64,000 bases of DNA from an uncultured Planctomycetaceae bacterium (GTDB taxonomy: Bacteria; Planctomycetota; Planctomycetia; Planctomycetales; Planctomycetaceae), in contig CAWFGE010000023.1 in the NCBI GenBank assembly GCA_963815195.1, positions 192,001-256,000 of the forward strand, read 5' to 3'. This document shows, in pieces, positions 40,794 to 57,955 of this stretch. The notes under the pieces were generated by a model that did no database searches, was not told the DNA's origin, and worked only from the letters and a program-made list of their open reading frames with translations. The position numbers were made by a program, and so were the translations under genes. Positions within the stretch are counted from its first letter, which is position 1. Each line of letters starts with the position of its first letter.

Positions 40794-41534
40794 ATGACGA
40801 GTCGTTTTCGATCGCCCTCCCAGTATTTGTCGGCCGCGGAATTTTCGGAGAACCCTCAGAATCTCGCCCGGCGGATGTTCCGACAAGCCTGTCGGTTAAA
40901 CTTTGAACAGGCGGGATTCGCGCTCGCCCAACTCGGCACCGACGGGGACTCCCGCCGGCTCCGGCAGTGGATGTTGGACATCTTGGACAGTTTGACGGAA
41001 TGCTCCCGGGAGCAATCGGGGCGAGAATTGCTCGCCCTGTCGATGAGCCGCTTCAACCAGCAGGCCACGACCAAACCGCACCGCGACGGCGGACCGGCCG
41101 AATCGCTGCTGCTTTTGGGTTATGAACCCACCCCGATCGACAGCCGACTTTCGATCGCGGACTATTCCCGCTGCGCATTCGATCTGGGTTTGACGCCGAC
41201 CGAGTTTCTGGATCGGCATAACCCGATGTTTCCCGCCGCGGGCGATTTGCTCAAGGAATACACAATTCCCGTGAGCGAGTTCGATCCGCGGCAGTATCAA
41301 ATCCTGCTGATCAACAACAGTTCCGCCGACTTCGATCCGCCCGACCCGCGCTGGCAAGGCGTGCTGCATCAAGCCACGATCCCGCACCCGCGGGAGGACG
41401 CGGTACGCGCTGTGAACTCCGTCCAACTGACCCCGGCGGGTTCGTCCGGTCTCGTTCCTATGACGGATGCCGAACGAGAACAGTTTCTGACCGACGACGC
41501 TTTGGGCCGGCAATACGGCCGGCAATCCGCGTGA
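40794..41534 (+). CDS. Hypothetical protein, possible Fe(II)/2OG (TauD-like) oxygenase
   Basis: HRD ... LH candidate facial triad; 246 aa. Confidence 0.55.
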   Translation: MTSRFRSPSQYLSAAEFSENPQNLARRMFRQACRLNFEQAGFALAQLGTDGDSRRLRQWMLDILDSLTECSREQSGRELLALSMSRFNQQATTKPHRDGGPAESLLLLGYEPTPIDSRLSIADYSRCAFDLGLTPTEFLDRHNPMFPAAGDLLKEYTIPVSEFDPRQYQILLINNSSADFDPPDPRWQGVLHQATIPHPREDAVRAVNSVQLTPAGSSGLVPMTDAEREQFLTDDALGRQYGRQSA

Positions 41535-41549
41535 AGAACCGATTCGGTT

Positions 41550-41846
41550 TCAAGGGACATCCGTTGAGTCTGTCAAAGCCGGTTCCTGGAGACTCCGCGC
41601 GACGCGAAAGCCAATATCTGCCACATCCTGCTCCAGGTCAAAACCACGAAACGCGGATCGGCAGTGATAACTCCCCCGAAACGATCCCCCGCGAACCACA
41701 CATAGGTTAGATGCTTTTTCGCACACCGGATCCTCGATGGGCGATCTCAGATAAAATCCGAGATCATGCCGGTCGTCATACCATTCCGAAACGTTTCCAT
41801 GCATATCGTAGAGACCAAAAGCGTTCGGCGGATAGGAACCGACGGG
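41550..41846 (-). pseudogene. C-terminal fragment of a formylglycine-generating enzyme (SUMF1) domain protein
   Basis: [26 protein letters not shown] and IGFRV motifs; 5' part missing. Confidence 0.8.
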
Positions 41847-42070
41847 CTCAAGAAAATCATCAAACGCGCCGGACTCAAAGTTTGGCCGAAGATTTGGCAG
41901 AACCTCAGGTCAACCCGGCAAACGGAATTCGAGAGAAGACTTCCCGGCCCACGTTGTCTGTGCTTGGATGGGGAATCGCGAACCCGTCGCCAAACCGCAT
42001 TACCTCCAAGTCACCGACCAGCACTTTGAAAAAGCTGTGTTTAACGCGCTGCAAAACCCGGTGCAGACAT
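41847..42070 (+). pseudogene. C-terminal remnant of a tyrosine recombinase/integrase
   Basis: [21 protein letters not shown] then HVVCAWMGN...HYLQVTD (box II and catalytic Tyr) across a frameshift; adjacent to the tRNA 3' end. Confidence 0.75.
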
Positions 42071-42172
42071 TGCACGCTCGGCAGAACTCGCCAAAGGTGA
42101 ACAACGCGAATTCGCCAAGTGCCTCAAGGCGAGCGATGCCGATATTTGGCGAACATCGACAGTGTGCAAAAG

Positions 42173-42246
42173 TAGGGCCGGAGGGACTCGAACCCCCAAC
42201 CAACAAATTATGAGTTTGCTGCTCTAACCGATTGAGCTACGGCCCC
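42173..42246 (-). tRNA. tRNA with CAT anticodon, probably tRNA-Ile2 (lysidine-modified); CCA not encoded
   Basis: GGGGCCGTAGCTCAATCGGTTAGAGCAGCAAACTCATAATTTGTTGGTTGGGGGTTCGAGTCCCTCCGGCCCTA folds as a cloverleaf; G27-U43 and C5-G68 pairs favour Ile2 over Met. Confidence 0.92.
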
Positions 42247-42473
42247 AATCTTTTTGGTAACGGCTTGCGTCACATGGATTTGTGATGCAAGCCGGTTTTG
42301 TCTGTGTCTGTCCCGGGTGCGTGTTTAATTCCTATTTGCAGCCTGTGGAACCTAGCTCTCCAAATCGGCCCGAGGTCCGCGGGCAGGAAATGGGTTAACT
42401 CTATCGGCGGATTGGGGCCGGGTCCAGTCCGCGCGCGGCGGCCACTGGCAACTTGTTGTCACTGCTTCCCACG

Positions 42474-43782
42474 TTATCGCGACGCCGCTTGCGACAGGCC
42501 GGCAAGTTGTTCGAGCAGGCTCTCGCCAAGTTCTGGCTCGCTCATCGCGATATACGCCGCATAGCCGGCGAGGGTTTGCGGCGTTTCGCCGTCGCGGAGC
42601 GGTTTGCCCTTTGTCAGATTATGGATCGCCGCGCGGATTTGCCGTTTGAGCGTTCGGGAAACGCGGGGCGGGCGGTCGCCGTTGGTGACGAGGCCCGTCA
42701 CCTGCTGCCGGCTGCCTTGGCGGTTGATGCGGGTTTTTTCGGGATGAATCTGAAACCCCTCATCGGCCACCGTCCGCTTGACGAGGCCCATCAGCCGGCC
42801 CAAACTCGGCGGCCCCTTATGCTCCGCCGGCAGGCTGAACGTCAAATCGTCCGCATACCGCGTGTACCGCCAACCGTGCTTTTTCGCGAGCCCCGACAGC
42901 CTGCGGTCCATCCGCAAGCAGAGCGTGTTCGTCAAGCCGGGGCTCGTCGGCGCGCCTTGCGGCAAACACCTCGGGCCCAAGGCGATAAAGTAAGTCTTGC
43001 CGTTGTGCTCGACGATCTCGCGGGGCGACTCGGTGCACAGGAGCGCGAGCAGCGTGGCGATCTGCTCGCGGTAGCCGGCCTTGCGGAACACGCCCTTCAC
43101 CCGCGGCAGCGTGACCGTGGGGAAGAAATTCTGGATGTCCATCTTCAAGAGGATCTGCGAATCGGTGTGCATCTTCGCGTTGGACAAAATCGACCGGCCC
43201 GGCAGGAAACCGTGGGCCGCCCCGTGGACGATCAGCTTTTCCACGATGTTCCGCAGAATCCAGCGTTGGGCGGCTTTGAGTTTCGGCAGCGGCGCCCAGA
43301 TCGCCCGCTCGCTGCCGTCGCGCTTGGGGATCGTAAACCGCCGATAGTGGATCAAAGTCGCCGCTTCGCGGTGATAGGCCAGCCAGCGAAGTTCCGCCAC
43401 GGAAAGATCCAGACTCTCGGCGAGCTCTTTCGGCGAATCCAGCGGCGGGCAGCTCGTTCTCGGCCGCGCGTTCCTCGGCGTGCTCCAGGTCCCACTTGTC
43501 CCAATCCAGGCCATCGTTCCAGAACACGTGCTCGCCCAGATGCACGATATAGTTGGCCCGGTACGCCTGCCAGGCTTCCGCCTTCAGCTTTTTCTTCTCC
43601 GCCGCCTCGCCCTTCAGTTGTTTTTTGTATGCCGCGAGTTCGCGTTTGGACATGCGGCCGGTTTCCCGGCGTTCGACGAGAAACCCGCGTTCGCGAAGCT
43701 GCTGCTCGATGTAAGCCTGCACGCTCCCCGCCTGCTCAATCGCCCGCCAAACCGCCGCCGCGTCCGACCGCCTTGCTGCCAT
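42474..43782 (-). CDS. Retron-type reverse transcriptase, Mx162-like (frameshift near 43448)
   Basis: IPKRDG, AAHGF, NAKMH (NAxxH), KMDIQNFFP, LPQGAPTSP, YTRYADD and VTG motifs; helical N-terminal extension; AGGA RBS before 43782. Confidence 0.92.
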
Positions 43783-43983
43783 GTCGTGTGGTCCTAAAGC
43801 CTTTATGTTTTGAAAAATCGAATCCGATGAGACAAGGTGTGTCACGATACGTCAGATCACAAGTGGACGCATCATTATTTTTTAGAAATCTGTTTCGGAA
43901 CATAAGCCCTATTTAACAAAATAGTTACCAAAAGTGCCAATCGTCGTCTGTCCAAAAAATCGCTCTGCAAGAAAATTTAGTCG

Positions 43984-44011
43984 TTGACATCCCTCCATAG
44001 CCGCATATAAA
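43984..44011 (+). promoter_or_regulatory. Putative sigma70 promoter divergent from the RT
   Basis: TTGACA-16 nt-TATAAA; purine-rich RBS-like GGAAAGGG and ATG downstream at 44109. Confidence 0.5.
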
Positions 44012-44139
44012 CGGGAAAATCACCTCAATCGGGTTTTCACTTCTTACCCGTTCCACTCAAAACGCCGTTGGATTCCGATCACTTCCCCATTTCGGAAAGG
44101 GCTGCACGATGTTGTTAAGGGATTGGCTCGATCCGCACT

Positions 44140-44228
44140 GGTGCCACTGGCAACTTGTTGCCAGTGTTTGCTTGATATTCGATCAATCACGCGTCAAAAG
44201 CACTGGCAGATAAGCCACCAGTGCCACC
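44140..44228. repeat. REPIN-like long imperfect hairpin; a half copy lies at 42441-42465
   Basis: ggtgccactggcaacttgttgccagtg ... cactggcagataagccaccagtgccacc; gccactggcaacttgttg also at 42441. Confidence 0.75.
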
Positions 44229-44285
44229 ATTGCCACCCCGGCGCCGGCTTTACTTGCCTATTGAGATGTGTTTGTGCCAGTTTGA

Positions 44286-44690
44286 TCAATTGGCTGGCCG
44301 GATAATCTTGTGGTTTGCATTCAATTTCGGAACGCGTTGGCAAGAGGCCAATCCTTGAAACTGAATCGATTTGGACTCATGCCATTCCTTCAGCCAATCT
44401 TTGAGATCGTGCTCCCAAACCATTGGAAACCGTAACGCCATCGACCACAACGCGTTGTAATCAACTGTTCGTTTTGTGATGATTTCATTCCAAACGGCTT
44501 GACGGGCCTTATCGAGGTATCGTTCTCTCAACTGCACGTAATGAGACGAGGGTTCACCTTCCTCATCGAAGAACAGTTCACCCTGTCCCGTTTTTTTAAC
44601 CCGACGATTCTGTTGTGATTTCGCCCTGGCCGATTCCATATCTTTCATGGCCTTTTTCTCGGCCTTTTTGAATTCCTCAATCCCTTTCAA
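44286..44690 (-). pseudogene. 5'-truncated low-GC gene fragment, possibly the C-terminus of a three-Cys-motif partner (TcmP-like) protein
   Basis: KGIEEFK.AEKKAM...TGQGELF then a wHTH-like tail; abuts an unrelated fragment at about 44690. Family recalled from memory only. Confidence 0.45.
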
Positions 44691-45645
44691 ATGCCCTCAA
44701 CTCCGACACGCTTTATCTTCTCGGCACCAACGTTGATAATGGATTTTATGAAGCGATGGTCAAGGTGGAAAACTCCTTGGGGGCCTCTGTGGAATCCTGC
44801 TTCCAAATCGATGTCGGCAACACGCCGCCGACGATTACGGTCGATGGAACGAGCGAGTCGATGGCCGGGGACGAGTATTCCATCGACATCTCCACGTCCG
44901 ACCTCGGGCCGGACACCGTCAGCTCCTTGAGCATCGACTGGGGCGATGGGACGGTTGACACCGCGGCAGCGGCAGGCGGGACTTTCACCCATGCTTATGA
45001 CACCGCCGATGGATACACCGTAACTGTCACCGCAACGGACGAGGACGGCAGCTATGACGCCGATCCGCATTACGTCATCGTTCACGGCACGGATCCCGTA
45101 ATCTTCTATGCCTTCGCAACGCTCATTGATTCGTCGACCGCCGAGGTTTCTGTTGAGGTGGACGATTATACCCAGACCTCCTTGGCACTCGATTGGGATC
45201 TCGACGCCGACGGGGTCTTTGACGACGCCACCGGCGACGCCGTGACAATCACCGCTGGCCAAGGGGTGTTTCCGGGAACCAACGGCGAGCCATTCCAGGC
45301 GAAATTAAGGGCCACGAACGGACTTGGCGGCGCGGCAAGTCAAGTTTTTGCATTCCAGCAGGGGGGCCAATTAAAGCCTGAACTTCAAGACATATTGACT
45401 TCTCTCACCAAAGTTGAGAATCGGTTCCAAATAACAGGAGCCAACCCGAAGGGTATTCCAACAACACTTAAATTTCCACCGAATTCAGATACGGTAGTAG
45501 TTACGGTAGTAGTTACGAATGCTCAATTGAAGTCATTGTTTAACAACATGATGGTGCTAGTAACTATGCACAACGGAGCATTTCTTGATGCCGGTTATTT
45601 AACTCAACAACCACCTACTCCAGTTGCTTTGATGGAGTATTTCAT

Positions 45646-47424
45646 CCCGGATTATTCACCAAAAAAGCTGAAAAAAGAAGGAACCATCGCGTGACCCCCT
45701 GCGTTTAAGTGTTATATGCAATCCCAACACCATACGGAGGAATCACGCGATGGGTGAAGTTCAGCCTAACATTTTCGAGCCCGATTTCAATCGTTCCATC
45801 AAGGTCAAGGCCGTCGATGGGCGGCTCACGTCACACTCCGGTGCCGTTCTGCTGCGGGACTTCGATCATCGGCTCGGACTCACCGAATCGCTCGCGGATC
45901 AACTGATCGATCCTCGCCAGCAAGACCGCGTCCGCTATCAAGGCGTCGAACTGCTGCGGGAAAGAATTTATGCCATGGCTCTGGGAGAGTCCGATCAGGA
46001 TGATCTCGACCGGCTCGCCCATGATCCCGCCATGAAGATGGCCGCCTGGGACCGGCCCGGCGAAGAAGTGCTCAACCAACGCCTGGCCAGCCAACCCACT
46101 CAGTCCCGGCTCATCGATTGGCTGGCCGACTGCAAGACGAATCTCGAGGCCGTGCGGAGCGCCTTGTTCGACTGGATCCATCGGCACATCAAAAGCACCG
46201 GCGACAGCGACCGCCGCGTCCGCTACGCCACCATCGACATCGACAGTTTCCCGATGCAGGTTTATGGCCAGCAGCCGGGGGCCCGCTATAACGGTTACTA
46301 TAAAGAGACGGTCTATCATCCGCTGGTCGCGAGTTTCTCGGTGGGCGGCGACTACGACGGCACGCGGGAAGGCCAGCGGCTGGGCAACGGCTTCATTCAT
46401 GCCATCCTGCGGCAAGGCAGCGTGCATACGGCCAATGGCATCCGGCGGTTTATTCGCAACGTGGTCGGCAAGGCCCGGCAACTGGCGTGGAGCTTCGACC
46501 TCCGGATCGATGCGGGTTTCATCGCCGGCCCGGTGTTGGATGAGTTGACCGACGAAAACATCCGTTTTTGCGGGAGAATCAAGAAGAACAACGTGCTGGA
46601 AGAGATGGCCGCGCCCTATCTGACACGTCCCGTAGGCCGGCCGCCCAAAGGGGGATATGAGGACGTGATCGAACTCGGAAAGTACCAAGCCGAGGGCTGG
46701 CGTCATCCGCAGCGGGTGATTCTGGTCATCGTCGACAAGCCGGAGGCGAAGACGGGCCAACTGGCTCTGTTTCCGCGTTACTTCTTCCTGATCACAAACT
46801 GGACCGAGGAGCAACGCTCGGCGGATGAGGTGTTGTCGCACTACCGCAAGCGCGGCACGTTCGAGGACCGGCTGGGCGAATTCAACGCGGTGATTGGCTG
46901 CCGTCTTTCGTCATCGGTGTTTGCGGAGAACGAAGTGACGTTGCTGTTGGGCCTGCTGGCGTTCAACCTGGCGTCGATGCTGCGGATCGAGTTCGAGGAC
47001 GAGTTGGGCGGTTGCTGGGACTTGCATCGTTTCCAGCAGTCGGTGCTGCGGACAGGAGCGCGGGTCGTGAAGCACTCCCGCCGCCTCGTGATTTACATTG
47101 AGGAAAGCGTGAGCGCGTTTTGGGCCGCGATGTCTTCCCGCATCCGATCGCTGCGTCTGGCCAACCTCTGGCCACGTCCGCGCGGAGCTCGCCCGCGGCC
47201 CTACACACCTCTCCCACGTCACGCCCATGAGCAACTGGTTCTTCGGGACTGAGCAGTTCGCCATCGTGGCATCCGCCTTTCTGTTTCTTTCCTTCACTCA
47301 CCCAACGATCGCCAGGCCCCAGGGGGGAAAGGGGGCGGTCCGCCCATCCTCCGCTCCCCAACCACCCGGTGCACTTTCCGCCACGGAAATACTCACCACG
47401 CACGGACCTGATGAATAATCCGGG
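45646..47424 (+). mobile_element. IS1380-family insertion sequence (1779 bp)
   Basis: Perfect 13-bp IRs CCCGGATTATTCA / TGAATAATCCGGG; 5-bp TSD TTCAT at 45641-45 and 47425-29. Confidence 0.93.
45750..47252 (+). CDS. IS1380-family DDE transposase
   Basis: LTSHSG.VLL, LASQPT.SR, IDIDS, RIDAGF and YRKRGTFE motifs. Confidence 0.92.
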   Translation: MGEVQPNIFEPDFNRSIKVKAVDGRLTSHSGAVLLRDFDHRLGLTESLADQLIDPRQQDRVRYQGVELLRERIYAMALGESDQDDLDRLAHDPAMKMAAWDRPGEEVLNQRLASQPTQSRLIDWLADCKTNLEAVRSALFDWIHRHIKSTGDSDRRVRYATIDIDSFPMQVYGQQPGARYNGYYKETVYHPLVASFSVGGDYDGTREGQRLGNGFIHAILRQGSVHTANGIRRFIRNVVGKARQLAWSFDLRIDAGFIAGPVLDELTDENIRFCGRIKKNNVLEEMAAPYLTRPVGRPPKGGYEDVIELGKYQAEGWRHPQRVILVIVDKPEAKTGQLALFPRYFFLITNWTEEQRSADEVLSHYRKRGTFEDRLGEFNAVIGCRLSSSVFAENEVTLLLGLLAFNLASMLRIEFEDELGGCWDLHRFQQSVLRTGARVVKHSRRLVIYIEESVSAFWAAMSSRIRSLRLANLWPRPRGARPRPYTPLPRHAHEQLVLRD

Positions 47425-47752
47425 TTCATTCAATATCAGACAGAATGGGTAACAGAAGTTAAGAACGGTCAGAGACAAGACGTGGGGAGGACACCGTGGG
47501 CACCCGACGGCCCCGACCTTGCTGCGAACTCGACCCATCCTTTTGGATATATAAATCAGGAACTTATCCTCGGTGGTGCGTTAATGGATGACACTCCAGG
47601 TACGAGCTTAGTGTTAAAACGCGGCATCCATTTCAAAGGTGTCACCGGGCAGTGAAAACCGGCCACTTGTGGGCAGTTCAAAACCGGCCATTTGAGAGGA
47701 AAGGGATTCGTCATTCTGTTCTCCTGGGAGTTTTCTCAGAGGAGAACAAGCG

Positions 47753-49365
47753 ATGTCGAATCAGCTCCCGATGGACACGGTTCAAGCCATTCATGCCTTA
47801 CACGCCCAAGACTGGTCTCAGCGCAAGATTGCCCGCGAATTGGGCATTCACCGTTCGACGGTGGCGGCCCATCTCGCTTCAAAACCGGCCAAAGTGCCCA
47901 CCGGGTCCGAGGATTCAAAACCGGCCAAAGTGCCCACCGGGTCCGAGGCCCAACTGCCCACCGGGTCGGAGGGCCAACCGCCCGTCGAATTCGAGGATCT
48001 TCCTGAGGCCCTTGGAGAAGATTCTGAGAAGGAAGAGGCGGAACCTTCGCGGAGTCGCTGCGAGCCTTGGCGGGATGTGATTTTGGAGAAACTCGGCCAG
48101 GGTCTTTCCGCGCAGCGGATTTTCCAAGACCTGTCGAATGACCATGATTATGTGCATGGCTACGACAGCGTGAAACGCTTCGTGCGGCATTTGCGATCTT
48201 CGAAAGAGTTGCCGTTTCGGCGATTGGAATGCCAACCCGGCGCGGAAGCTCAAGTGGACTTTGGCCAAGCAGCGGCCGTCGTGGATGAGAACGGCCGTCG
48301 CCGCCGACCTCACGTGTTGCGCGTGGTGCTGAGCCACAGCCGCAAGGGTTACACGGAAGCGATCGAGAAACAGACCACCGATGGCTTCATCCGTTGTTTG
48401 GAGAGCGCGTTCTGGCATTTTGGGGGCGTGCCCAAGACGCTAATCATCGATAACTTGCGAGCCGCGGTGAGCAAGGCCGATTGGTTCGACCCGGAACTCA
48501 ATCCCAAGATTCAATCGTTCGCCGAGCATTACGGCACGGTGTTTTTGCCCACGCGGGTTCGCACGCCGAGGCACAAGGGCAAGGTGGAACGCGGCGTGGA
48601 CTACGCCCAAGAAAACGCACTCAAAGGGCGGACGTTTCAAAGCCTGCGCGAACAGAACGAACATCTTTGGAATTGGGAATCCACGGTGGCCGATACGCGG
48701 ATTCATGGAACGACCAGAGAGCAAGTGGGCCAGGCGTTTCGCGAGCGAGAACAGTCGGCGCTGTTGCCGTTGCCGCTCGAACGCTTTCCGTTTTTCCATG
48801 AAGCCGAACGGAGCGTGCATCGCGATGGGCACATCTCCGTGGAGAAGGCGTATTACTCCGTGCCGCCGGAATTCTTGGAAGGAAAGTTTGGGTTCGCTGG
48901 GATGCGCGGCTGGTGCGAATCTTCAATACCAAGCTGGAACAGATCGCCTTGCATCCCCGTCAAGAACCGGGAAAGTTCAGCACGCAGAACACCCATTTGC
49001 ACGCACAAAAAATCTCGGGTGTGGAACGCGGAGCCACTTGGTGGTTGGCGAAAGTCAGCGAAATCGGCCCGGAAACCAGGGATTGGGCCGCGGCCATGCT
49101 GGGAGCACGGGGCATTGAAGGCGTGCGGGTGTTGATGGGTCTGAAGCAACTCGCCGACAAGCATTCGCGTGAGGACATCGAACGCGCGTGTTGCACGGCC
49201 CACTCGTATGGAGCCTACCGTCTTCGCACCGTTCGCAAGCTGATCGATCGCAACGCCCCCGTGCAAGGACAGTTCGAGTTTTTGGACGAACACCCGGTCA
49301 TTCGGCCGTTGGTGAGTTATTCCGAGTTTGTGCAATCCGCTTTACGAAAGGAACAGAATCGATGA
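47753..49365 (+). CDS. istA: IS21 transposase IstA (frameshift near 48878)
   Basis: N-terminal HTH, EAQVDFG, FGGVP..IIDN, KGKVERGV and YYSVP motifs. Confidence 0.92.
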
Positions 49366-50337
49366 ATGGGAACTTAATGCAGATGCTGAAGCAACTCCGC
49401 TTGAGCGGTCTGATCGAATCGTTGGAAGTCAGGCTTCAAGAGGCCGTCGGCAACGGATTGTCGCATGCCGAATTTGGAGTTGGTGTTGAGCGATGAGTTG
49501 GCGATCCGTCGTCAACGGGCGATCGATCGGCGATTGAAGCAAGCCCAGTTCCGCGAGATGAAAACTCTCGATCAACTCGATTTTTCCTTCAACCCCACTC
49601 TCCCCAAACGCCGAATTATGGACCTGGCCACGGGACAGTTTATTCGCGAAGCGGCCGACATTTTACTGCTCGGTCCGCCGGGCACGGGAAAAAGCCACTG
49701 CTGCCAGGCAGTGGGTCGCAGTGCAATCAAAGCCGGCTTCACGGTGCTCTACCGTTCGATCTTCGATGTGGTCCGCGACTTCCTGCACGAGGCCGCGTTC
49801 GAGGGTGATGACAAAACGCTGATGCGCTACCTCAAGCCCGACCTGTTGATCATTGACGACATGGGCATGAAGCAACTCCCGAAGAGAAGCGGGGAATGCT
49901 TGTTCGAGATCATCCTTCGCCGGCACGAAGTCCGCAGCACGATGATGACCTCGAATCGACCGTTACAAGATTGGGGCAAGCTCATCGGCGATGTGCCCGC
50001 CGCGACCGCGATCTTGGATCGCTTCTTGGAGCATGCCGAGATCATCCAGATCACCGGCCAAAGCTACCGCCTTCGCAACCGAACGAAAGAGAAACTGGAC
50101 CAAGAGGACAAGGCTCAACAGGACGCCAAAACCGGCCAAGACGAGAAGCCCAGACGGGACGCCAAAACCGGCCAAAAGGAGACGGGGAATCAAAGCCCCA
50201 AAACCGGCCAAAGTGCCCACCGGGTCGAGCCCGAAGAATCCTCTGAGAAAAACTGCCCAGAAAATAAGCAAGCCAAACGGCAAAGGATCAGAAAAACCCA
50301 CCTGAGACTTGAGCCACCGAGGTCAAGCATCCGATAG
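49362..50337 (+). CDS. istB: IS21 helper ATPase IstB (frameshift near 49475) with a repetitive C-terminal tail
   Basis: LRLSG, GPPGTGKSH, LLIIDD, TSNRP, AILDR and GQSYR motifs. Confidence 0.92.
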
Positions 50338-50768
50338 CAAAACTGCCACCGACAGAAAGATTGTGCGACCAAGTCGCGTTACTAATCATTCACACCCCTG
50401 TCGGTTTTGAAGTGCCCACCCCTGGCCGGTTTTGAAGTGCCCGGTGACACAAAGGGGACCGAGTTGCCAACGGCATTAAGATCACTCTCATCAAAACCCC
50501 AAAACAAATCTACGATGGCAGCGCGTCTTACCAGGCTTTTGTTGCCAATCAACGAGAAGCTGGCCAAGACTTTCAAACATACATCGCACAAGCACGACGG
50601 CCGGGGTTCGGGGCGGCCTTTAGTATTCATCCTTATAGATACGTTGAATGGGGTTTCAAGCTGACTGGGACAGCGAACGGCTGGGACGTTACACTTACCG
50701 TTACACTTACCCAACCATCTGAACATGTGGGCAACGATCAGAATGTTTGGAACTTGTGAGGTAGTTCA

Positions 50769-51503
50769 ATGGTAGGTCTTTCAACATTAATTACTGCATT
50801 AGGTATTTGTTTTGGAACCATCTACTACACATGCCTGATTACGATGAATACAGACCGTGCGGTAACGCGGTGTGGGGGTTTAGCGATCGGTGGATCAATA
50901 TTACCGGACTGGATTTCAAGCCGTCTCGGTGCCATTAATGTTGTAAGGGAGATTCACTGTGCAAATGCCGACGCTATCCAGTTTCCGGAATCTAAAGCTA
51001 TTCTCCATGATCGTTGGATGTTTGGTGGGTCCGCCAGGATTTCCACGGAATTAGTCCAAGTCCTAGCGAAAAACGACCATCTGGATTACGTGCATCTGGA
51101 TTTCACGGAATTCAATGACTCACACCTGCAAATGCTGAGTGCTTCCGACAACATCACGCTGCTGGGCATCTGCGGGACGAAGTGCACGGATGACGGGATG
51201 AAGCATTTGCGGAAATATCGGCATTTGGAGAGCGTCTATCTCTGCGAATTGCCGATACGCGATGCCGGGGCGGCGGAGATTGCGAAGTGCAAGACGCTGA
51301 AATACGTCAACATCTACGAAACCTCGATCGGCCCCAAGGGGTTGGAGAAGCTGTTCGAGCTCCCCAAGTTGGAAACCCTCGTGGTCAGCGACAACGCCCC
51401 CTTCAAGGAGGAACTGTCCTGGTTGAAAAAGAAGCGGCCGAAAGTCAAGGTGGTGGAATTTAAAACCCAATATGACGCCGAAGGCAACAAGCGAGTGGAT
51501 TAG
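50769..51503 (+). CDS. Membrane-anchored leucine-rich repeat protein (copy 1)
   Basis: N-terminal TM; LxxLxLxxTxxxDxG-type repeats; starts 9 nt after the stop of the PKD gene. Confidence 0.82.
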   Translation: MVGLSTLITALGICFGTIYYTCLITMNTDRAVTRCGGLAIGGSILPDWISSRLGAINVVREIHCANADAIQFPESKAILHDRWMFGGSARISTELVQVLAKNDHLDYVHLDFTEFNDSHLQMLSASDNITLLGICGTKCTDDGMKHLRKYRHLESVYLCELPIRDAGAAEIAKCKTLKYVNIYETSIGPKGLEKLFELPKLETLVVSDNAPFKEELSWLKKKRPKVKVVEFKTQYDAEGNKRVD

Positions 51504-51737
51504 GACTCGGACAGGCTTCATCGATCGGAGTGAGCCTGCCGCGAAGCTCACCCCGCGGTGGCGTCCAGGTAGCCTTTGGCGGCGAGGTTTTCCAGGCGGC
51601 TCAAGTACTCGGTTCTGGCTTCATCCGTCGAGTTGAAGCGGAGGTTTTGGGAACGCAACTCGTCCCCGGCCCGGCCCCAGCGGAGGCGGAGCTTGTGGCG
51701 GTCGAGGGTGATTTGAAAGACATCTTCGCCCGCGGCG

Positions 51738-52154
51738 GCCCAGAACCGAGCCGCCTGGGATGCCATCCTAAGAAATACGGCGGCCAGACGATTGGTGATG
51801 GGCTGGTAACTATGAGCGATGCGCTTGGGCAATATAAAACGCTTACAAAAGGTGTCGATTATTCGGAAACACGAGTGCCTGGAACAAACATAGTGCAATT
51901 CATGCTGATTAAGACTCCTCAGCAAATTTTTGCTGCCGACGATACCCACCAGTCTTACGCTAGTAATCAATTCGAGGTAAAACAGGACTTCCAGACCTAT
52001 TTGGTGAAACATATTGCCCCAGCGACGTTCATTCCGATCAAATACGTCGAATGGAGCTTTAAAGCCAGCGACAACGACGACTGGCTATAACATTACGATT
52101 CTTACGCAGCCTATGCAGCATAACGGCGCGGATAACAACGTTTGGAATCTATAA
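51738..52154 (+). pseudogene. Orphan second C-terminal domain homologous to that of the PKD gene
   Basis: Shares LIKTP.QI, NQ.E..QDFQTY, YVEW.FK and terminal VWNL* (after a frameshift near 52085); no start. Confidence 0.85.
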
Positions 52155-52171
52155 TGCAGCGAGGTCGTGTC

Positions 52172-53007
52172 ATGACATCGAAAACATCCATTGCCACAAT
52201 CGGAATCTATTTAGGAGCGTTATTCTGTTTTACAATTCAGAATAACCAGGATATTGAGGATAAGGTTTACGAGTGCGGGGGCACCACGATTTCTGAACTT
52301 ATTATGCCCGCTCGGATCGTAAGCAGAGTTCCCGCTGCCCGTCTTTTGAACCCAATCAGGGAAATCCACTGTATAAATTCTGACGCAATCAGATTTCCGA
52401 TGCAGTCAAAGGTTGTTCTCCACGATCGTGATATAATTACGTTCCGCAAGGAAAAGAATGCGTATCTTTCCAAGGAACGACTCATAGCCTTGGAGGGGTT
52501 ATTCCACCAGCTTAATCCCTCACCCCAATGCGCAGCCCGTGTTTCCACGGAATTAATCAAAGTACTAGCGCGGAACGACCATCTGGATCATGTGCATGTG
52601 GATTTCACGGGTTCAACGACTCGCACCTGAAAACTCTGAGTGCGCTCCGATAATATCACCTGCAATTGGGCATCAGCGGGACAAAGTGCACGGATGACGG
52701 GATGAAGCATTTGCGGAAGTATCGGCATTTGGAGAGCGTCTATCTCTGCGAATTGCCGATACGCGATGCCGGGGCGGCGGAGATTGCGAAGTGCAAGACG
52801 CTGAAATACGTCAACATCTACGAAACCTCGATCGGCCCCAAGGGGTTGGAGAAGCTGTTCGAACTCCCCAAGTTGGAAACCCTCGTGGTCAGCGACAACG
52901 CCCCCTTCAAGGAGGCACTGTCCTGGTTGAAAAAGAAGCGGCCGAAAGTCAAGGTGGTGGAATTTAAAACCCAATATGACGCCGAAGGCAACAAGCGAGT
53001 GGATTAG
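52172..53007 (+). pseudogene. Leucine-rich repeat protein (copy 2) with indels near 52610-52665
   Basis: Divergent N half sharing CGG, REIHC.N.DAI.FP and LHDR with copy 1; C half nearly identical to copy 1. Confidence 0.8.
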
Positions 53008-53051
53008 GACTCGGACAGGCTTCATCGATCGGAGTGAGCCTGCCGCGAAGC

Positions 53052-54929
53052 TCACCCCGCGGTGGCGTCCAGGTAGCCTTTGGCGGCGAGGGTTTCCAGG
53101 CGGCTCAAGTACTCGGTTCTGGCTTCATCCGTCGAGTTGAAGCGGAGGTTTTGGGAGCGGAGTTCGTCCCCGGCCCGGCCCCAGCGGAGGCGGAGTTTGT
53201 GGCGGTCGAGGGTGATTTGAAAGACATCTTCGCCCGCGGGATGCCGGCGGCTGAAGGTGCGGGTTTCGACGGTGATCGCCGCCCGCGACCGGCCGCCAGC
53301 GGCGCGTTCTTTTTCGCGGACCGCATAAGCCAGGCGGAGGGCGATCAGATGCGGGCAGGGGCCGTGCTGCAGGCCTTGCTTCCTAAAGAAGGTGCACGTG
53401 CACTCGGCTTTGCTCACGCCGCCGTCGTCGTTGACCAACAACTGCGGGCGGTACTCGCGCTTGTCCTCGGCCACGTTGACCTTGCCCGTCAGTTCCAAGC
53501 CGGTGCCGTAGATGCGGTTTTCGGTGGCGATGCTCACGGCGTTTTTGCGAGCGAGCAAATCGTGGGCGAGCCGTTCCCGCTGGTTGCGGTATTCCAGCCG
53601 ATCCAGATGCAGGGGGACATCGGTCAATGGCCGCAGGCGATAGACGTTCCGGGCCAGGTCGAACATCAACTGCCCCTGCTGGCAGCCCAATTGCAAGGCT
53701 TCGTGAAGCGCCTCGCCGGTGAGCTTGGTCGCTTTGGACAAGCCGGCTTCCTCATCGAACCAGACCTGGGAAAGGTGCTTGATGACCGCTTTGAGTTCCT
53801 TGGACTCCTGCGTTTTTCGCGGCAGAAGCAAATCGAAGCTCGCGGCCTCTGACCAGTTCGCGGATGTGAAGCCCGTCATGCCGAGCGTGATCGTCAGGTC
53901 CTCCGACCGGAGCACCCAAAAGCTCGGCAGGCCGCTGCCCAGGATGTGCACCTCGACCCCATCCACAAAAGGCAGCAGCCGCTGCAGAAGCATCAGCCGC
54001 CGCCGGCCCCAGATGCGAACGACTTTCGCCTGCCGGCCTTGATAGATCCCCGCCGACGCGGGCAGCACCTTTTCCCAAGGCTCCAACACGACGACGGGCT
54101 TTTCGCCGGGGATGAGTTCCACCCGCAGGCCGCGGCGTTTGCCTTTTTCGTCCGCGTGCATCCGCAAATGGCGGAGCACGTTGTACAGATCGAGCGGCGA
54201 CAGCGAGAACCGCTCCCGCGGCAAGGTCGCGGCGGACTGCACCTGCAGGAACCCGCGAATCCACGAGTCCGGCACGCGGATGTTTTTTTCGAGGACTTCG
54301 GGCTTCGATTCCGCGGGGGCTTCGGCCGCGTCCTGGGCGATCGTCAGGCTGGTCTCGCGGTAGCTCCGCATTTGCAACAGGCCGTCGAACAGCGTTTGGC
54401 TGAAGTCGATGTTCGTGGTGCCGAAGGCCGGCTCGTTTTTCTGTTCGGTGACCGATTCGAAAGCGTCGCGGGCGATGTTCAAGGAGGCATAGCTGCCTTC
54501 ATCCTTGCTGAAGACTTCCACCAGCACGGCGTCGGGATGCACGGTGATGACCGGATCGAGAATCAGCCACGCCAGCGGATCGTTGCGGGACAGCCATTCG
54601 AAGTAGGCCTGCTGGGCTTCCCACGCGGCGAGGTTCGAGGATTGCTGCTTCATCCGCCGATAGGCCTGGTACGCGGTGCGGTCTTTGGGGACGTAGCGGT
54701 AATCGCTGCCGACGATGGCGTAGATCGCCGCGAGCGCTTCGCGAAACTTGAGCGGATCGCGAATCCGCCCGTCAAAGCGCACCGGATCGCGATGCCGGTT
54801 CCCGAACAACCGGAGTTGCGATTTTCCCTCCGCCGAGACGACCCGGCTCTCGCCCTCGTACGCGAGCGAAACATCCGTCTGATCCGGCGCGGCCGGCTCA
54901 TCCGCTTCGGTGGATTTTTCATCGGTCAT
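53052..54929 (-). CDS. SWIM zinc-finger protein with a C-terminal WGR-like domain (retron type XIII-associated type)
   Basis: CTC-x12-CPH SWIM motif; LDPVITVHPD, SWIRGFLQVQSA, WGRRRL, GSGLPSF and a C-terminal RWGR..AKGY; GAGGA RBS. Confidence 0.85.
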   Translation of the reverse strand: MTDEKSTEADEPAAPDQTDVSLAYEGESRVVSAEGKSQLRLFGNRHRDPVRFDGRIRDPLKFREALAAIYAIVGSDYRYVPKDRTAYQAYRRMKQQSSNLAAWEAQQAYFEWLSRNDPLAWLILDPVITVHPDAVLVEVFSKDEGSYASLNIARDAFESVTEQKNEPAFGTTNIDFSQTLFDGLLQMRSYRETSLTIAQDAAEAPAESKPEVLEKNIRVPDSWIRGFLQVQSAATLPRERFSLSPLDLYNVLRHLRMHADEKGKRRGLRVELIPGEKPVVVLEPWEKVLPASAGIYQGRQAKVVRIWGRRRLMLLQRLLPFVDGVEVHILGSGLPSFWVLRSEDLTITLGMTGFTSANWSEAASFDLLLPRKTQESKELKAVIKHLSQVWFDEEAGLSKATKLTGEALHEALQLGCQQGQLMFDLARNVYRLRPLTDVPLHLDRLEYRNQRERLAHDLLARKNAVSIATENRIYGTGLELTGKVNVAEDKREYRPQLLVNDDGGVSKAECTCTFFRKQGLQHGPCPHLIALRLAYAVREKERAAGGRSRAAITVETRTFSRRHPAGEDVFQITLDRHKLRLRWGRAGDELRSQNLRFNSTDEARTEYLSRLETLAAKGYLDATAG

Positions 54930-55023
54930 GCGTCGGTTCCTCATTCGTGTGCTGTTCAAATCGCTCCCAGTCTGAGCAATCCCAGAAGCCGGGTCAAGCG
55001 GTTGCCGTGATCGATTTCGAGGC

Positions 55024-55127
55024 GATGACCGCTTACTTCGTGCGCGGCTCTCTTTGCAAAAAAGATGACCGCTTACTTCGTGCGCGGCTCTCTTCGCAAA
55101 AAAGAGCCGCGCACGAAGTAAGCGGTC
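55024..55127. repeat. REP cluster (core CCGCTTACTTCGTGCGCGGCTCT): two direct copies and one inverted copy
   Basis: 40-bp period followed by an inverted copy; same core as at 24984 and 57767. Confidence 0.9.
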
Positions 55128-55286
55128 CTTTGCCGGAAAAGGTCGGGGCACCCATCGTGATGACGGTTCCCGATGGACTGGCTCTCTGGAGTTCGCCGTT
55201 GTACGCTGTCGGAATTGTTTGCACCGATTAAGGTCTCAGTCAAAGGCTCAACACCAAAGCTGCCTCACCCCTTGGAAAGATTGCCC

Positions 55287-56447
55287 ATGCCTGGCCCGCG
55301 ATTTGGTTGTTTTCCTCTTGGTTTGGTTCTCGTCCTGGGGAATGGAATCTTCTCCAGCCTCTCCGCGGCAGAGCGGGAATATACGGGGGACGTTCGCGAT
55401 GTGGTCACGATCGACACGCTCGATCCCGAAGGGCCTTACAACAAGATCTGGGAACCCTACATCGCCCAGTGGACGAGCCAGCATTATGTCGCGGCGTATG
55501 GCCTCCAGGTGCGCGGGAAAGGCGACATGGGCGACATCGTGTGCTCGATCACGCGAGACGCCGGCAAGACCTGGAGCCCGCGGATCATGGTGTTCGACCA
55601 CAACCAGCGCAACGGCACGGTGCAGTATGCTTATAACAATTCGATCCTGTTCCGGCCGCCGGGGCAGGATGTGATCTGGCTGTTCGTGATGCGGGCCCCC
55701 ATGCATTACCGCGACAGCGAAAACGCCGACCTCGTCGCGGCCTACACCGCCGACGGCGGCTATTCCTGGCATCCCGTCGAGTTGGCGATGGACTACCAGG
55801 GCTCGCTGGTCACGGTGGCGGGGATCGAAACCGTGGTTCGGGACGGGGTGCCGCATTATTTGTTGCCGGCCCATCGCAACTCCCGCCGGCACGATCCGCA
55901 CGGCGACCGCCGGCAGTTCGTTTTGGAGAGCACGAGCCTCCTGCATTGGAAACTCGCGGGCTATGTGCCTTATGAGGAGAGCCGGCCCGTCTTTCTGCAC
56001 GAAGGCGGCATTGCTCAAGGCGAGAAGCCGGGCGAACTGAAAATCGTCATGCGAACCGCCGACATGGAGCGCGAGCGGCCGCTCGATCCGCCGCTCGCGT
56101 ATTCGTCCGTGAGCCACGACGGCGGCAAAACCTGGTCCACCGCGAAGCCCGAGCCCGACCTGCCCAACTACCGCGCGAAAAGCTTTTATGGGAAAAGCCG
56201 AGATGGCGATTTCATCTATGTCTATAGCAATCAAACCGAGCGACGGGGCCTGTTTTACCAAACCCGCACTGCAAACGGCGACTGGTCGGAGGCCAAGACG
56301 TTCTACGAAGCCGGCAACCGCAACAGCTATCCCACGCTGATCGAAGACCGCCCCGGCCGCTGGCTTACTGTGTGGGACAGCTCCAACGAACCGGGCCAAC
56401 CCCGCACCGCCATCCGCTTCGGCCGCCTCATCACCGGCTCCAAGTGA
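55287..56447 (+). CDS. Secreted sialidase/BNR-repeat glycosidase-like protein
   Basis: Asp boxes TRDAGKTW, TADGGYSW and SHDGGKTW; SYPT motif. Confidence 0.85.
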   Translation: MPGPRFGCFPLGLVLVLGNGIFSSLSAAEREYTGDVRDVVTIDTLDPEGPYNKIWEPYIAQWTSQHYVAAYGLQVRGKGDMGDIVCSITRDAGKTWSPRIMVFDHNQRNGTVQYAYNNSILFRPPGQDVIWLFVMRAPMHYRDSENADLVAAYTADGGYSWHPVELAMDYQGSLVTVAGIETVVRDGVPHYLLPAHRNSRRHDPHGDRRQFVLESTSLLHWKLAGYVPYEESRPVFLHEGGIAQGEKPGELKIVMRTADMERERPLDPPLAYSSVSHDGGKTWSTAKPEPDLPNYRAKSFYGKSRDGDFIYVYSNQTERRGLFYQTRTANGDWSEAKTFYEAGNRNSYPTLIEDRPGRWLTVWDSSNEPGQPRTAIRFGRLITGSK

Positions 56448-56490
56448 CCAAAAACCCCCAAATCAGGCGGGCATCATGGATGTGGTGGAT

Positions 56491-56531
56491 CTTCACAGAA
56501 TCTTAACATTCCGTTCATTGAATGATTCACC
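56491..56531 (+). promoter_or_regulatory. Putative PHO-box array upstream of pstS
   Basis: CTTCACA (56491), CTTAACA (56502), GTTCATT (56513) and ATTCACC (56525), at about 11-bp period. Confidence 0.6.
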
Positions 56532-56610
56532 AAACCGGCTATCTTGAACTTCGGCACCTGAAAACGATGGCCCAAAACCCTCTTAGGAAATAACCCTTTA
56601 AGGAATTCTG

Positions 56611-57672
56611 ATGAAACCTCTTCTGCGAAAAGCCTCCGGTTTGACGCTGGCGCATTGTTTCGCCCTGTTCACCCTCCTCGGTTGCGGGAGTGGTTGCAGC
56701 AACAGCAATCAAAGCGACGACGAGAACCCGGAAGTCAATACGCAACTCGCCGGCGACATCAAGATCAATGGCTCCAGCACTGTGGCGCCGATCAGCATTG
56801 CGGCGTCTTCCGAATTCAAGAAGACGTTTCCCAAGGTCAAAGTCACCGTGGGCAACAAAGGCACGGGCGACGGGTTCAAAATGTTCATCGCGGGCGAGAC
56901 CGACATCTCCGACGCCTCCCGGCCGATCAAGCCCGGCGAATTGGCCGACTTGCGAAAGAACAAGATCGACTTTATCGAACTGCCGGTGGCTTATGACGGC
57001 TTGACCGTAGTCGTGCATCCCGATCTGGCCATCGATCAGGTGACGGTGGAGGAACTCCGAGAGATCTTCGGCAACCAGACCAAGCCCCAAAAATACAGTG
57101 ACGTGAATCCCAACTGGCCCACGGTCGAGATCAAGATCTATGCTCCCGGAGACGAATCCGGGACTTACGACTACTTCAAGGAAGCGATTCTCAAGGGCGG
57201 CGAGATGCGCGGGGATTATTCGCCCAATGCGGACGACAATGCTTTGGTCACGTCCATCGCCGGAACGAAGGGCGCGATCGGGTTCTTCGGGGCGTCCTAT
57301 TACTTCGGGAACAAGGACAAGCTGAAAGCCCTCAAAGTCGTCAATCCGGAAACGAAACAGGCCGTGCTGCCGTCGCCCGAGACCGTGGAGAGCGGCGAGT
57401 ATTCCCCGCTGAGCCGGCCGCTGTTTATCTATGTGAACACCGAAAGCTACAAGAAAGCCCAAGTCCGCGAATTCGTGAAGGAGTACATCAACCACGCGGG
57501 CGAACTGGCGACGAGCGTGAATTACGTGGCCTTGCCCCAGGAAGTCTACGACCGGGCGAAAGAGCACCTCAAGGAAAAGAAAACCGGCACGCACTACGTC
57601 GATGCCGAAGGCAACAGCCGCTCGGGTTCGCTGAAGGAAATCTACAAAGCCGAGAATTTGACTGGGAAATAA
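56611..57672 (+). CDS. pstS: Phosphate ABC transporter substrate-binding protein
   Basis: INGSSTV.P, GTGDG, DASR, SGTYDYF and YSPLSRPLF motifs. Confidence 0.93.
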   Translation: MKPLLRKASGLTLAHCFALFTLLGCGSGCSNSNQSDDENPEVNTQLAGDIKINGSSTVAPISIAASSEFKKTFPKVKVTVGNKGTGDGFKMFIAGETDISDASRPIKPGELADLRKNKIDFIELPVAYDGLTVVVHPDLAIDQVTVEELREIFGNQTKPQKYSDVNPNWPTVEIKIYAPGDESGTYDYFKEAILKGGEMRGDYSPNADDNALVTSIAGTKGAIGFFGASYYFGNKDKLKALKVVNPETKQAVLPSPETVESGEYSPLSRPLFIYVNTESYKKAQVREFVKEYINHAGELATSVNYVALPQEVYDRAKEHLKEKKTGTHYVDAEGNSRSGSLKEIYKAENLTGK

Positions 57673-57766
57673 GCAGGGCCGGACGTTTTAGGTGATCGGG
57701 TTTTGACGCAAAGCTCGCAAAGAGAAGACGCAAAGGCCGCTCAGGACCACGGACAAGAGGCATAAG

Positions 57767-57886
57767 GAGCCGCGCACGAAGTCAGCGGATGTGTGATGCC
57801 GGAATGCAAAACCGCTTACTTCGTGCGCGGCTCTAGGACGACAGCATGCAAAACCGCTTACTTCGTGCGCGGCTCTAGGACGACAG
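57767..57886. repeat. REP cluster between pstS and pstC
   Basis: gagccgcgcacgaagtcagcgg followed by two ccgcttacttcgtgcgcggctctaggacgacag copies. Confidence 0.88.
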
Positions 57887-57955
57887 TCGTTCCTGTCCGT
57901 GCCGAGAATCCCGAACCTTGCGGACGGCCGGCATCTGAGGATTTGACATTGGCAG

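Follow-up and report, generated by a model that had tools for sequence, protein, structure and literature searches.

The locus described here lies within a 64,000-nucleotide stretch of the genome of an uncultured Planctomycetaceae bacterium (assembly GCA_963815195.1, contig CAWFGE010000023.1, positions 192,001 to 256,000; the whole stretch is referred to as the window). It is rather likely to be a polymorphic toxin-immunity locus in decay, in which a C-terminal tip and the N-terminal half of a neighboring leucine-rich repeat (LRR) protein would have been exchanged as one block. Its components are the end of a gene for a stalk of immunoglobulin (Ig)-like and PKD domains, the tip CT1, the LRR1 gene, and a second cassette formed by an incomplete tip, CT2, and a second LRR gene, LRR2 (Table 1). 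Several architectural features of a polymorphic toxin are present, namely a constant body that carries unrelated tips, a same-strand gene directly downstream and a leftover cassette. The toxin gene itself is dead in this genome, where its middle is deleted and two insertion sequences (IS) interrupt it; the locus is a pseudogene of which LRR1 alone is still intact.

In the intact form of the system, a long secreted Ig/PKD stalk protein would display an exchangeable effector tip of ~265 amino acids, and a ribonuclease-inhibitor-like LRR protein with a signal anchor, encoded by the next gene, would bind this tip and block it. Alleles would be swapped as a tip together with an LRR N half, between the constant stalk and the constant LRR C half. 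The toxin gene has since been inactivated, leaving LRR1 as the only intact part. CT1 is presumed to be toxic and LRR1 to neutralize it, and tip and LRR N half are presumed to be exchanged as a block.

The stalk, its relatives and the tips

When both IS are excised and one copy of each target duplication is kept, a single open frame of 495 codons is restored (44672-50756), comprising about 230 residues of Ig/PKD stalk and the tip of about 265 residues (267 in the joined frame, 263 when counted from the junction shared with relatives). A first-pass annotation of this DNA had proposed that a PKD-stalk gene is rejoined once the two IS are removed, and the exact target duplications and the single frame bear this out. 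Of 100 possible pairs of offsets, 12 leave the frame open, and one of these is the pair that corresponds to the actual duplications (5 and 6). The PKD domain in the stalk piece scores above the Pfam cut-off. The GC content of third codon positions (GC3) drops at the stalk-tip junction: the stalk has 0.70 and the three pieces of CT1 have 0.38-0.50, which agrees with the AT-richer DNA first reported from that point onward.

The main new support for a toxin locus comes from the relatives of the stalk. The stalk piece matched 76 of 397 genomes of the family, and 40 regions around the matches listed yielded 32 stalk-matching open reading frames (ORFs). In seven of these the alignment extends across a distinct pre-tip domain as far as the CT1 junction, with 32-47% identity to the stalk in the pre-toxin block (BLAST alignments), and the protein then continues into a toxin-like tip; these seven include the five best matches by E-value, this genome's own aside, in the 397 family genomes. 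The remaining 25 share generic PKD domains only, and are either cut off or finish in other domains. A pre-tip profile, whose matches to its own training rows are a matter of construction, recovered two further strong members in 341 genomes. One has a tip that looks HNH-like by eye and is cut by the contig end, and the other (L157:2549-3913) ends six residues past the junction and is tipless. The pre-tip domain thereby has nine close relatives with four kinds of tip or none, to which CT1 adds a fifth kind, and a nuclease-like or peptidase-like tip stands at the CT1 junction in eight of the nine. Because these unrelated, toxin-like tips share one junction, CT1 fills a polymorphic-toxin slot. The toxin-immunity class proposed in the first-pass annotation is supported to that extent, with the reservation that the copy in this genome is a pseudogene.

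The sister tips vary in how clearly they can be assigned. The L103 tip is a WHH nuclease followed by a SMI1/KNR4 gene, both above the Pfam cut-off, and the L086 tip is a C39-like peptidase whose match is at the cut-off (E 1.5e-4). The tips of L087-L091 are mutually homologous, 248-265 residues long, and contain an invariant HH..H..H pattern, with weak matches to DUF2380 in two of the five (E 0.005 and 0.019) and to the SitA6 model TIGR02269 in one (E 0.014). The genes downstream of these five tips are Cys-rich, and one of the three scanned is weakly double-CXXCG-like (E 0.034). L088 and L103 start with what we take, by eye, to be a planctomycete-type leader; in the window stalk gene the N-terminal secretion region is deleted and only a start remnant is left. 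In L089 (581-3520, minus strand), a glycosyltransferase family 2 domain, the stalk and a DUF2380-like tip occur in one open frame.

The two tips at this locus are homologous to each other, as first reported for a startless domain about one third identical to CT1. The CT2 segment 51737-52066 aligns with CT1 residues 124-235 with 40 of 114 positions identical (35%, E 7e-20), and its frame-shifted tail with 14 of 28. Identity by codon position is 0.64/0.63/0.34 in piece 3, and piece 2 gives a weaker signal of 0.40/0.40/0.31; since third positions differ most, the pattern indicates that CT1 and CT2 diverged under purifying selection.

Beyond this pair, CT1 remains the unassigned end domain that it was initially described as, since none of the searches linked it to a homologue, to a family or to a fold that could be relied on. 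The pieces, which were all that could be searched, matched no family in Pfam, NCBIfam, PHROGs or PADLOC. Homologues were found in none of the 40 relatives and none of the 397 family genomes, and pattern scans of GTDB and viral contigs, searches of 5.8 billion proteins (longer proteins only) and comparison with PDB sequences returned nothing, with matches in plasmids at chance level only. Four weak matches among 400 genomes of the phylum were rejected because none covered the whole of CT1, and four among 1.84 billion representatives because their scores were sums of weak matches along proteins of Ig/fn3 repeats. The ESM Atlas gave recognition scores of 1509 and 1412 and no usable lead. The CT2 model has a pLDDT of 49.8, and a structure search (best Z 6.6, with many ties) was uninformative; a three-piece CT alignment was dropped with piece 2 misplaced. 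The largest libraries are too big for 35% relatives of a 100-residue piece to be detected reliably, with relatives at the level of CT2 borderline, and the remote libraries were searched with pieces only, so that these negatives do not show absence. A motif of Rhs tips (W..D, PF.Y, D.PG, F.T, WG) resembles CT1 by eye and is a tentative lead only; a regular-expression scan of this genome for it found no member.

The putative LRR partner and the second cassette

The LRR1 gene begins nine nucleotides past the CT1 stop on the same strand, exactly as first noted. The accompanying statement that nothing here is intact among the listed ORFs is wrong for LRR1, which is listed as a complete frame. Its Pfam LRR match is below the cut-off, and the fold is assigned from a structural model and Foldseek: residues of about 90-230 are modelled as an LRR of the ribonuclease-inhibitor (RI) class, with a best E of 3e-7 against RI and NLR LRR folds, and residues 1-73, the N cap, are of low confidence (pLDDT <50) and contain conserved cysteines. 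The transmembrane anchor once claimed for the LRR proteins is retained as a hydrophobic N-terminal helix of only moderate hydrophobicity, with a best 19-residue mean of 1.73, compared to 1.16-1.71 in five full-length relatives. Given toxicity, action in the cell envelope would be slightly favored over a cytoplasmic, nuclease-type target, because the partner looks membrane-anchored and its N cap has conserved cysteines.

Seven metagenomic LRR relatives at 57-84% identity are among nine matches obtained from 718 candidates. The N half of LRR2 is 52-66% identical to those of P0002-P0005, the N halves of LRR1 and P0006 are 35-42% identical to all others, and the C halves are 59-87% identical and group differently. 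Trees were built from the six full-length rows, without the partial sequences of P0007, P0008 and LRR2. In these trees the C halves group LRR1 with P0002 (support 100/99), and the C-half data reject the N-half grouping (approximately unbiased test, p-AU 0.0006), a grouping that is itself weak (69/49). Mosaicism between N and C halves is suggested by these trees, though not proven. Composition follows the same division: GC3 is 0.41-0.46 in the LRR N halves, 0.78-0.79 in the C halves and 0.79 in the SWIM-WGR gene of the right flank, so that stalk (0.70) and LRR C half (0.79) are host-like, and tips and LRR N halves, taken together, have low values (0.38-0.50). Scans for LRR loci found three weak ones at 34-35% in JGI, none in GTDB and none among the 397 family genomes at E 1e-25.

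LRR2 abuts the CT2 stop, and its N half is 40% identical to that of LRR1, whereas in the C half only 6 of 114 codons differ. This contrast between a divergent N half and a near-identical C half had been recognized at the outset, but the near-identity continues past the LRR stop. It belongs to a ~700-bp repeat (51040-51735 and 52542-53239, 95% identical), in which the C half of the LRR gene is followed by 44 nt of identical spacer and then by 63 codons from the 3' end of the SWIM gene. The repeat copies have 12 codon differences, 8 of them synonymous. The near-identical C halves are best explained as a recombination tract rather than as conservation of the C half alone. Since LRR C half, spacer and SWIM end are all shared, both cassettes came from the same SWIM-adjacent slot in very close relatives, as two alleles of one slot whose tips and LRR N halves nevertheless have 55-65% of their residues different. 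The leftover tip-immunity remnant expected from the first-pass annotation is therefore present, but the repeated SWIM end fits a displaced allele of the same locus better than a classical orphan module, and cassette 2 is probably the former.

The simplest and most likely history is one of displacement, in which DNA from a close relative, carrying stalk, CT1, LRR1 and SWIM 3' end, would have recombined in, pushing the resident CT2-LRR2 downstream and removing the start of CT2. A single-crossover gain of the CT2 block would leave an identical map, and the direction cannot be told from the map. Some of the frameshifts in CT2 and LRR2 may be assembly errors, which the IS insertions are not.

An artefact of mixed-strain assembly is highly improbable as the explanation of the joined gene or of the tandem. 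Indel noise is present, at four private indels in 12 IS1380 copies or about 0.2 per kb, a short-read contig differs by one gap from the reverse transcriptase (RT) region of the left flank, and the indels of LRR2 are concentrated at the edge of the repeat; in four contig sets mapped on 41000-57000, at a depth of 0-4, no piece bridged the tandem. However, the exact target duplications of both IS restore the frame, the repeat copies differ at codons that are mostly synonymous, and a strain chimera would still mean two alleles at one slot. The four contig sets contained no joint that bypasses either IS.

Exported repeat proteins recur in the immunity position elsewhere in this genome (G000), as judged from an LRR protein behind one giant gene and an ankyrin-WD40 protein behind another. 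The first of these genes (L176, C15:324647-333184) is an Rhs gene with 27 RHS repeats, a frame split near the start and an unknown tip of about 320 residues; the exported LRR protein is encoded directly downstream, followed by a Clp-like ATPase (labelled by eye). The second (L177, C14:65012-73245) is an FG-GAP/PKD/cadherin gene that is split over two frames; its end is AT-rich and of unknown type, and the ankyrin-WD40 gene comes next. Exported repeat proteins behind giant genes, one of which ends in an HExxH motif, would also suit a different interpretation, in which CT is an ordinary adhesin end domain, the LRR protein a chaperone, regulator or chance neighbor, and the tandem a plain duplication. 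About 20 LRR-matching frames in the genome and the 25 of 32 PKD-matching ORFs that are cut off or have an end domain other than a toxin lean the same way. However, those 25 ORFs lack the pre-tip domain, and plain duplication cannot yield 35-45% protein identity in tip and LRR N half beside ~98% DNA identity in LRR C half and SWIM end, which makes this interpretation quite improbable.

A non-toxic ligand-receptor pair, serving self or kin recognition or adhesion on a stalk that is used elsewhere for toxins, is improbable as well. It would account for a tip that matches no catalytic motif or toxin family and for an LRR protein that looks like a membrane-anchored receptor, unlike the small cytoplasmic immunity proteins of the sister tips, and co-varying N halves suit recognition as well as immunity. 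However, all eight pre-tip relatives that have a tip have a nuclease-like or peptidase-like one. Toxins are usually lost before their immunity genes, and the destroyed tip gene and intact partner at this locus reproduce that order of decay.

Several observations weigh against a toxin-immunity locus with block exchange. CT1 and CT2 contain no HNH, HExxH or other recognized catalytic motif, and no homologue of either was found beyond this locus in any search. None of the nine pre-tip relatives has a CT1-like tip or an LRR neighbor gene, the toxin labels of L087-L091 are sub-threshold matches plus a histidine pattern, and the stalk does not require a tip, given the tipless relative. The linkage of CT and LRR rests on two copies at one locus, and the hydrophobic-anchor scores of the LRR proteins are marginal. 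The C-half grouping of LRR1 with P0002 survives the test against the N-half data (p-AU 0.17), and fast evolution could replace recombination as the cause of the N-half pattern.

Decay of the putative toxin gene and its chromosomal setting

Table 1. Features of the putative toxin locus and its flanks (window coordinates)
Feature	Coordinates	Strand	Basis and remarks
Type XIII retron reverse transcriptase, split frame	42474-43845	-	PADLOC RT_XIII E 3e-146; left flank
Stalk-toxin gene upstream region and first codons (putative; ATG at 44109)	43945-44136	+	Similarity to C10 gene start
REP-like palindromic repeat	44140-44228	.	Left edge of DNA replacing the gene's middle
Startless 3' fragment of unrelated gene	44286-44696	-	ORF list
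Stalk, last three Ig-like domains (Ig-like, PKD, pre-tip domain), 5'-truncated	44672-45367	+	PF18911/PF00801, pre-tip profile A8
CT1 piece 1	45368-45645	+	GC3 0.38; begins at junction common to toxin-bearing relatives
IS1380-family element	45646-47424	+	1779 bp, terminal inverted repeats, 5-bp target duplication; transposase family match
CT1 piece 2	47430-47639	+	Aligns with N-terminal part of CT2
IS21-family element (istA, istB)	47640-50449	+	2810 bp, 6-bp target duplication; transposase and IstB families
CT1 piece 3 including stop	50456-50759	+	Third codon positions diverge most from CT2
LRR1, 244-residue candidate immunity protein	50769-51503	+	Hydrophobic N-terminal helix, variable N half, LRR C half
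Duplicate of SWIM gene 3' end (63 codons, WGR region)	51548-51736	-	Repeat comparison
CT2, homologous tip without first ~120 residues	51737-52154	+	Frameshift near 52066
LRR2	52154-53007	+	Other N-half type, in-frame insertion of about 25-28 residues, frameshifts clustered near 52610-52670
SWIM-WGR gene of type XIII retron	53052-55151	-	PADLOC SWIM_XIII E 3e-193; Pfam SWIM, WGR; right flank

A remnant of the start of the stalk gene, overlooked in the first-pass annotation, is separated from the PKD part by foreign DNA. It is 79% identical over 199 nt to C10:7700-7898, where a further gene of this genome for a giant secreted protein has its 5' end, and is inferred from this similarity to be the start of the stalk-toxin gene. 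Between this remnant and the last three stalk domains, the gene has been replaced by the palindromic repeat, which resembles repetitive extragenic palindromes (REP), and by the opposite-strand gene fragment. The REP-like palindrome has 73 genome-wide matches at <=2 mismatches, in both orientations, and copies flank the RT gene on both sides (44140-44228 and 42432-42467). The gene fragment, tentatively labelled three-Cys-motif-partner-like, has no credible match in Pfam, NCBIfam or PADLOC. The IS1380-family element has 13 more near-full copies elsewhere in the genome, and 36-nt tandem repeats within istA (47878-47972) and istB (50100-50231) of the other element resemble the IS21 end motif. A promoter scan of 49900-53300 stayed at chance level.

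The giant gene on C10 (7766-17085) is in two frames and has its HExxH motif near the end; it is followed by a gene that appears by eye to encode a membrane-anchored WD40-like protein, and its upstream region is the one homologous to the stalk-gene remnant. Farther along the contig that carries L177 (C14:81000-91000), there are RAMP-like genes that resemble a type III CRISPR module by eye.

The toxin locus, 9.2 kb in length, separates the RT and SWIM-WGR genes of a type XIII retron, as this type is defined in PMC7736814. In two genomes of the same genus, distant homologues of these two genes (39-51%) are 0.6-1.2 kb apart, and the toxin locus has therefore probably been inserted into an RT-SWIM slot. 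The split in the RT frame may be an assembly error; the short-read contig that deviates there by a single gap covers 43017-43732. A tRNA with a CAT anticodon (42172-42246, minus strand), the sole match of an Rfam scan, adjoins the RT gene and is a possible integration site. Another repeat family, with units of ~40 nt in direct and inverted orientation, is found at 55024-55127 and 57764-57888; one of these clusters overlaps the 5' end of the SWIM gene, where hairpin-like joints occur in run X1.

Comparison with known systems

Rhs and CDI (contact-dependent inhibition) systems show tip polymorphism and have orphan modules of C-terminal tip and immunity gene downstream. The present locus resembles them in its tip polymorphism and in its downstream leftover cassette. 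However, Rhs proteins have RHS/YD repeats and a DPxG site before the tip, whereas the junction here is the end of an Ig-like domain, and RHS repeats were matched neither in the window stalk piece nor in its nine relatives. CDI haemagglutinin repeats and a VENN-type pre-toxin domain likewise gave no Pfam match in the window piece or the relatives, and no search was made for a CdiB partner. CT2 also differs from Rhs and CDI orphans in lacking any remnant of the stalk, and a segment of the downstream flank lies in front of it.

The pair formed by DUF2380 (PF09533), as in SitA6, and double-CXXCG (PF09535) proteins is a known myxobacterial toxin-immunity pair, according to PMC12077181. The DUF2380-like tips and Cys-rich downstream genes of five stalk relatives resemble it, through weak matches. 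SitA6 toxins, as described in the same paper, are lipoproteins passed on by outer-membrane exchange, whereas the tip here is on a long Ig stalk; the DUF2380/double-CXXCG pair is not in the window, and the profile of the L087-L091 tips does not match CT1.

Interbacterial toxins of planctomycetes are thinly described. A literature search, mostly without full texts, found neither an Ig/PKD-stalk toxin platform nor an anchored LRR immunity protein described in planctomycetes, although the supplements of PMC3482391 may list some such platforms and LRR partners. It is a tentative and rather doubtful proposition that this locus represents a planctomycete platform of Ig/PKD/cadherin stalks with a dedicated pre-tip domain, a new CT fold and an anchored LRR protein with a co-swapped specificity half. 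If it did, the immunity gene would itself be a recombining chimera and CT1/CT2 would be a toxin domain without known relatives. The pre-tip domain provides a handle for collecting toxin tips from these genomes. If exchange ends inside the immunity gene, the locus would offer a simple natural model of a repeat scaffold that tracks the specificity of its target, of a value limited by the dead toxin gene in this genome.

A close likeness is to the polymorphic toxin systems surveyed in 2012 (PMC3482391), in which a constant 5' body, a swappable 3' tip, an immunity gene directly downstream and remnants of older cassettes are described, as are WHH/HNH tips with SUKH immunity and papain-like peptidases, like those of the sister tips here. 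LRR proteins are an immunity class listed in that text, in a row that is tied to T5SS (type V secretion system) toxins and from which planctomycetes are absent, whereas the neighbor here is an Ig/PKD stalk gene; the term PKD does not occur in the text as accessible. The Ig/PKD stalk, the tip without a library family and an exchange that apparently ends inside the immunity gene also set this locus apart from the systems covered there. LRR immunity is reported for an Rhs cluster in bioRxiv 10.64898/2026.07.13.738213. The LRR1 model resembles LRR inhibitors of the RI class and, with an E of 9e-5, Legionella LegL1, which is known bound to RavJ (PDB 4xa9); the likeness is one of fold only, at 17-20% identity, and LRR1 adds the hydrophobic N-terminal helix. 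On these comparisons, the locus appears to behave as a polymorphic toxin-immunity system that is neither Rhs, CDI nor SitA6.

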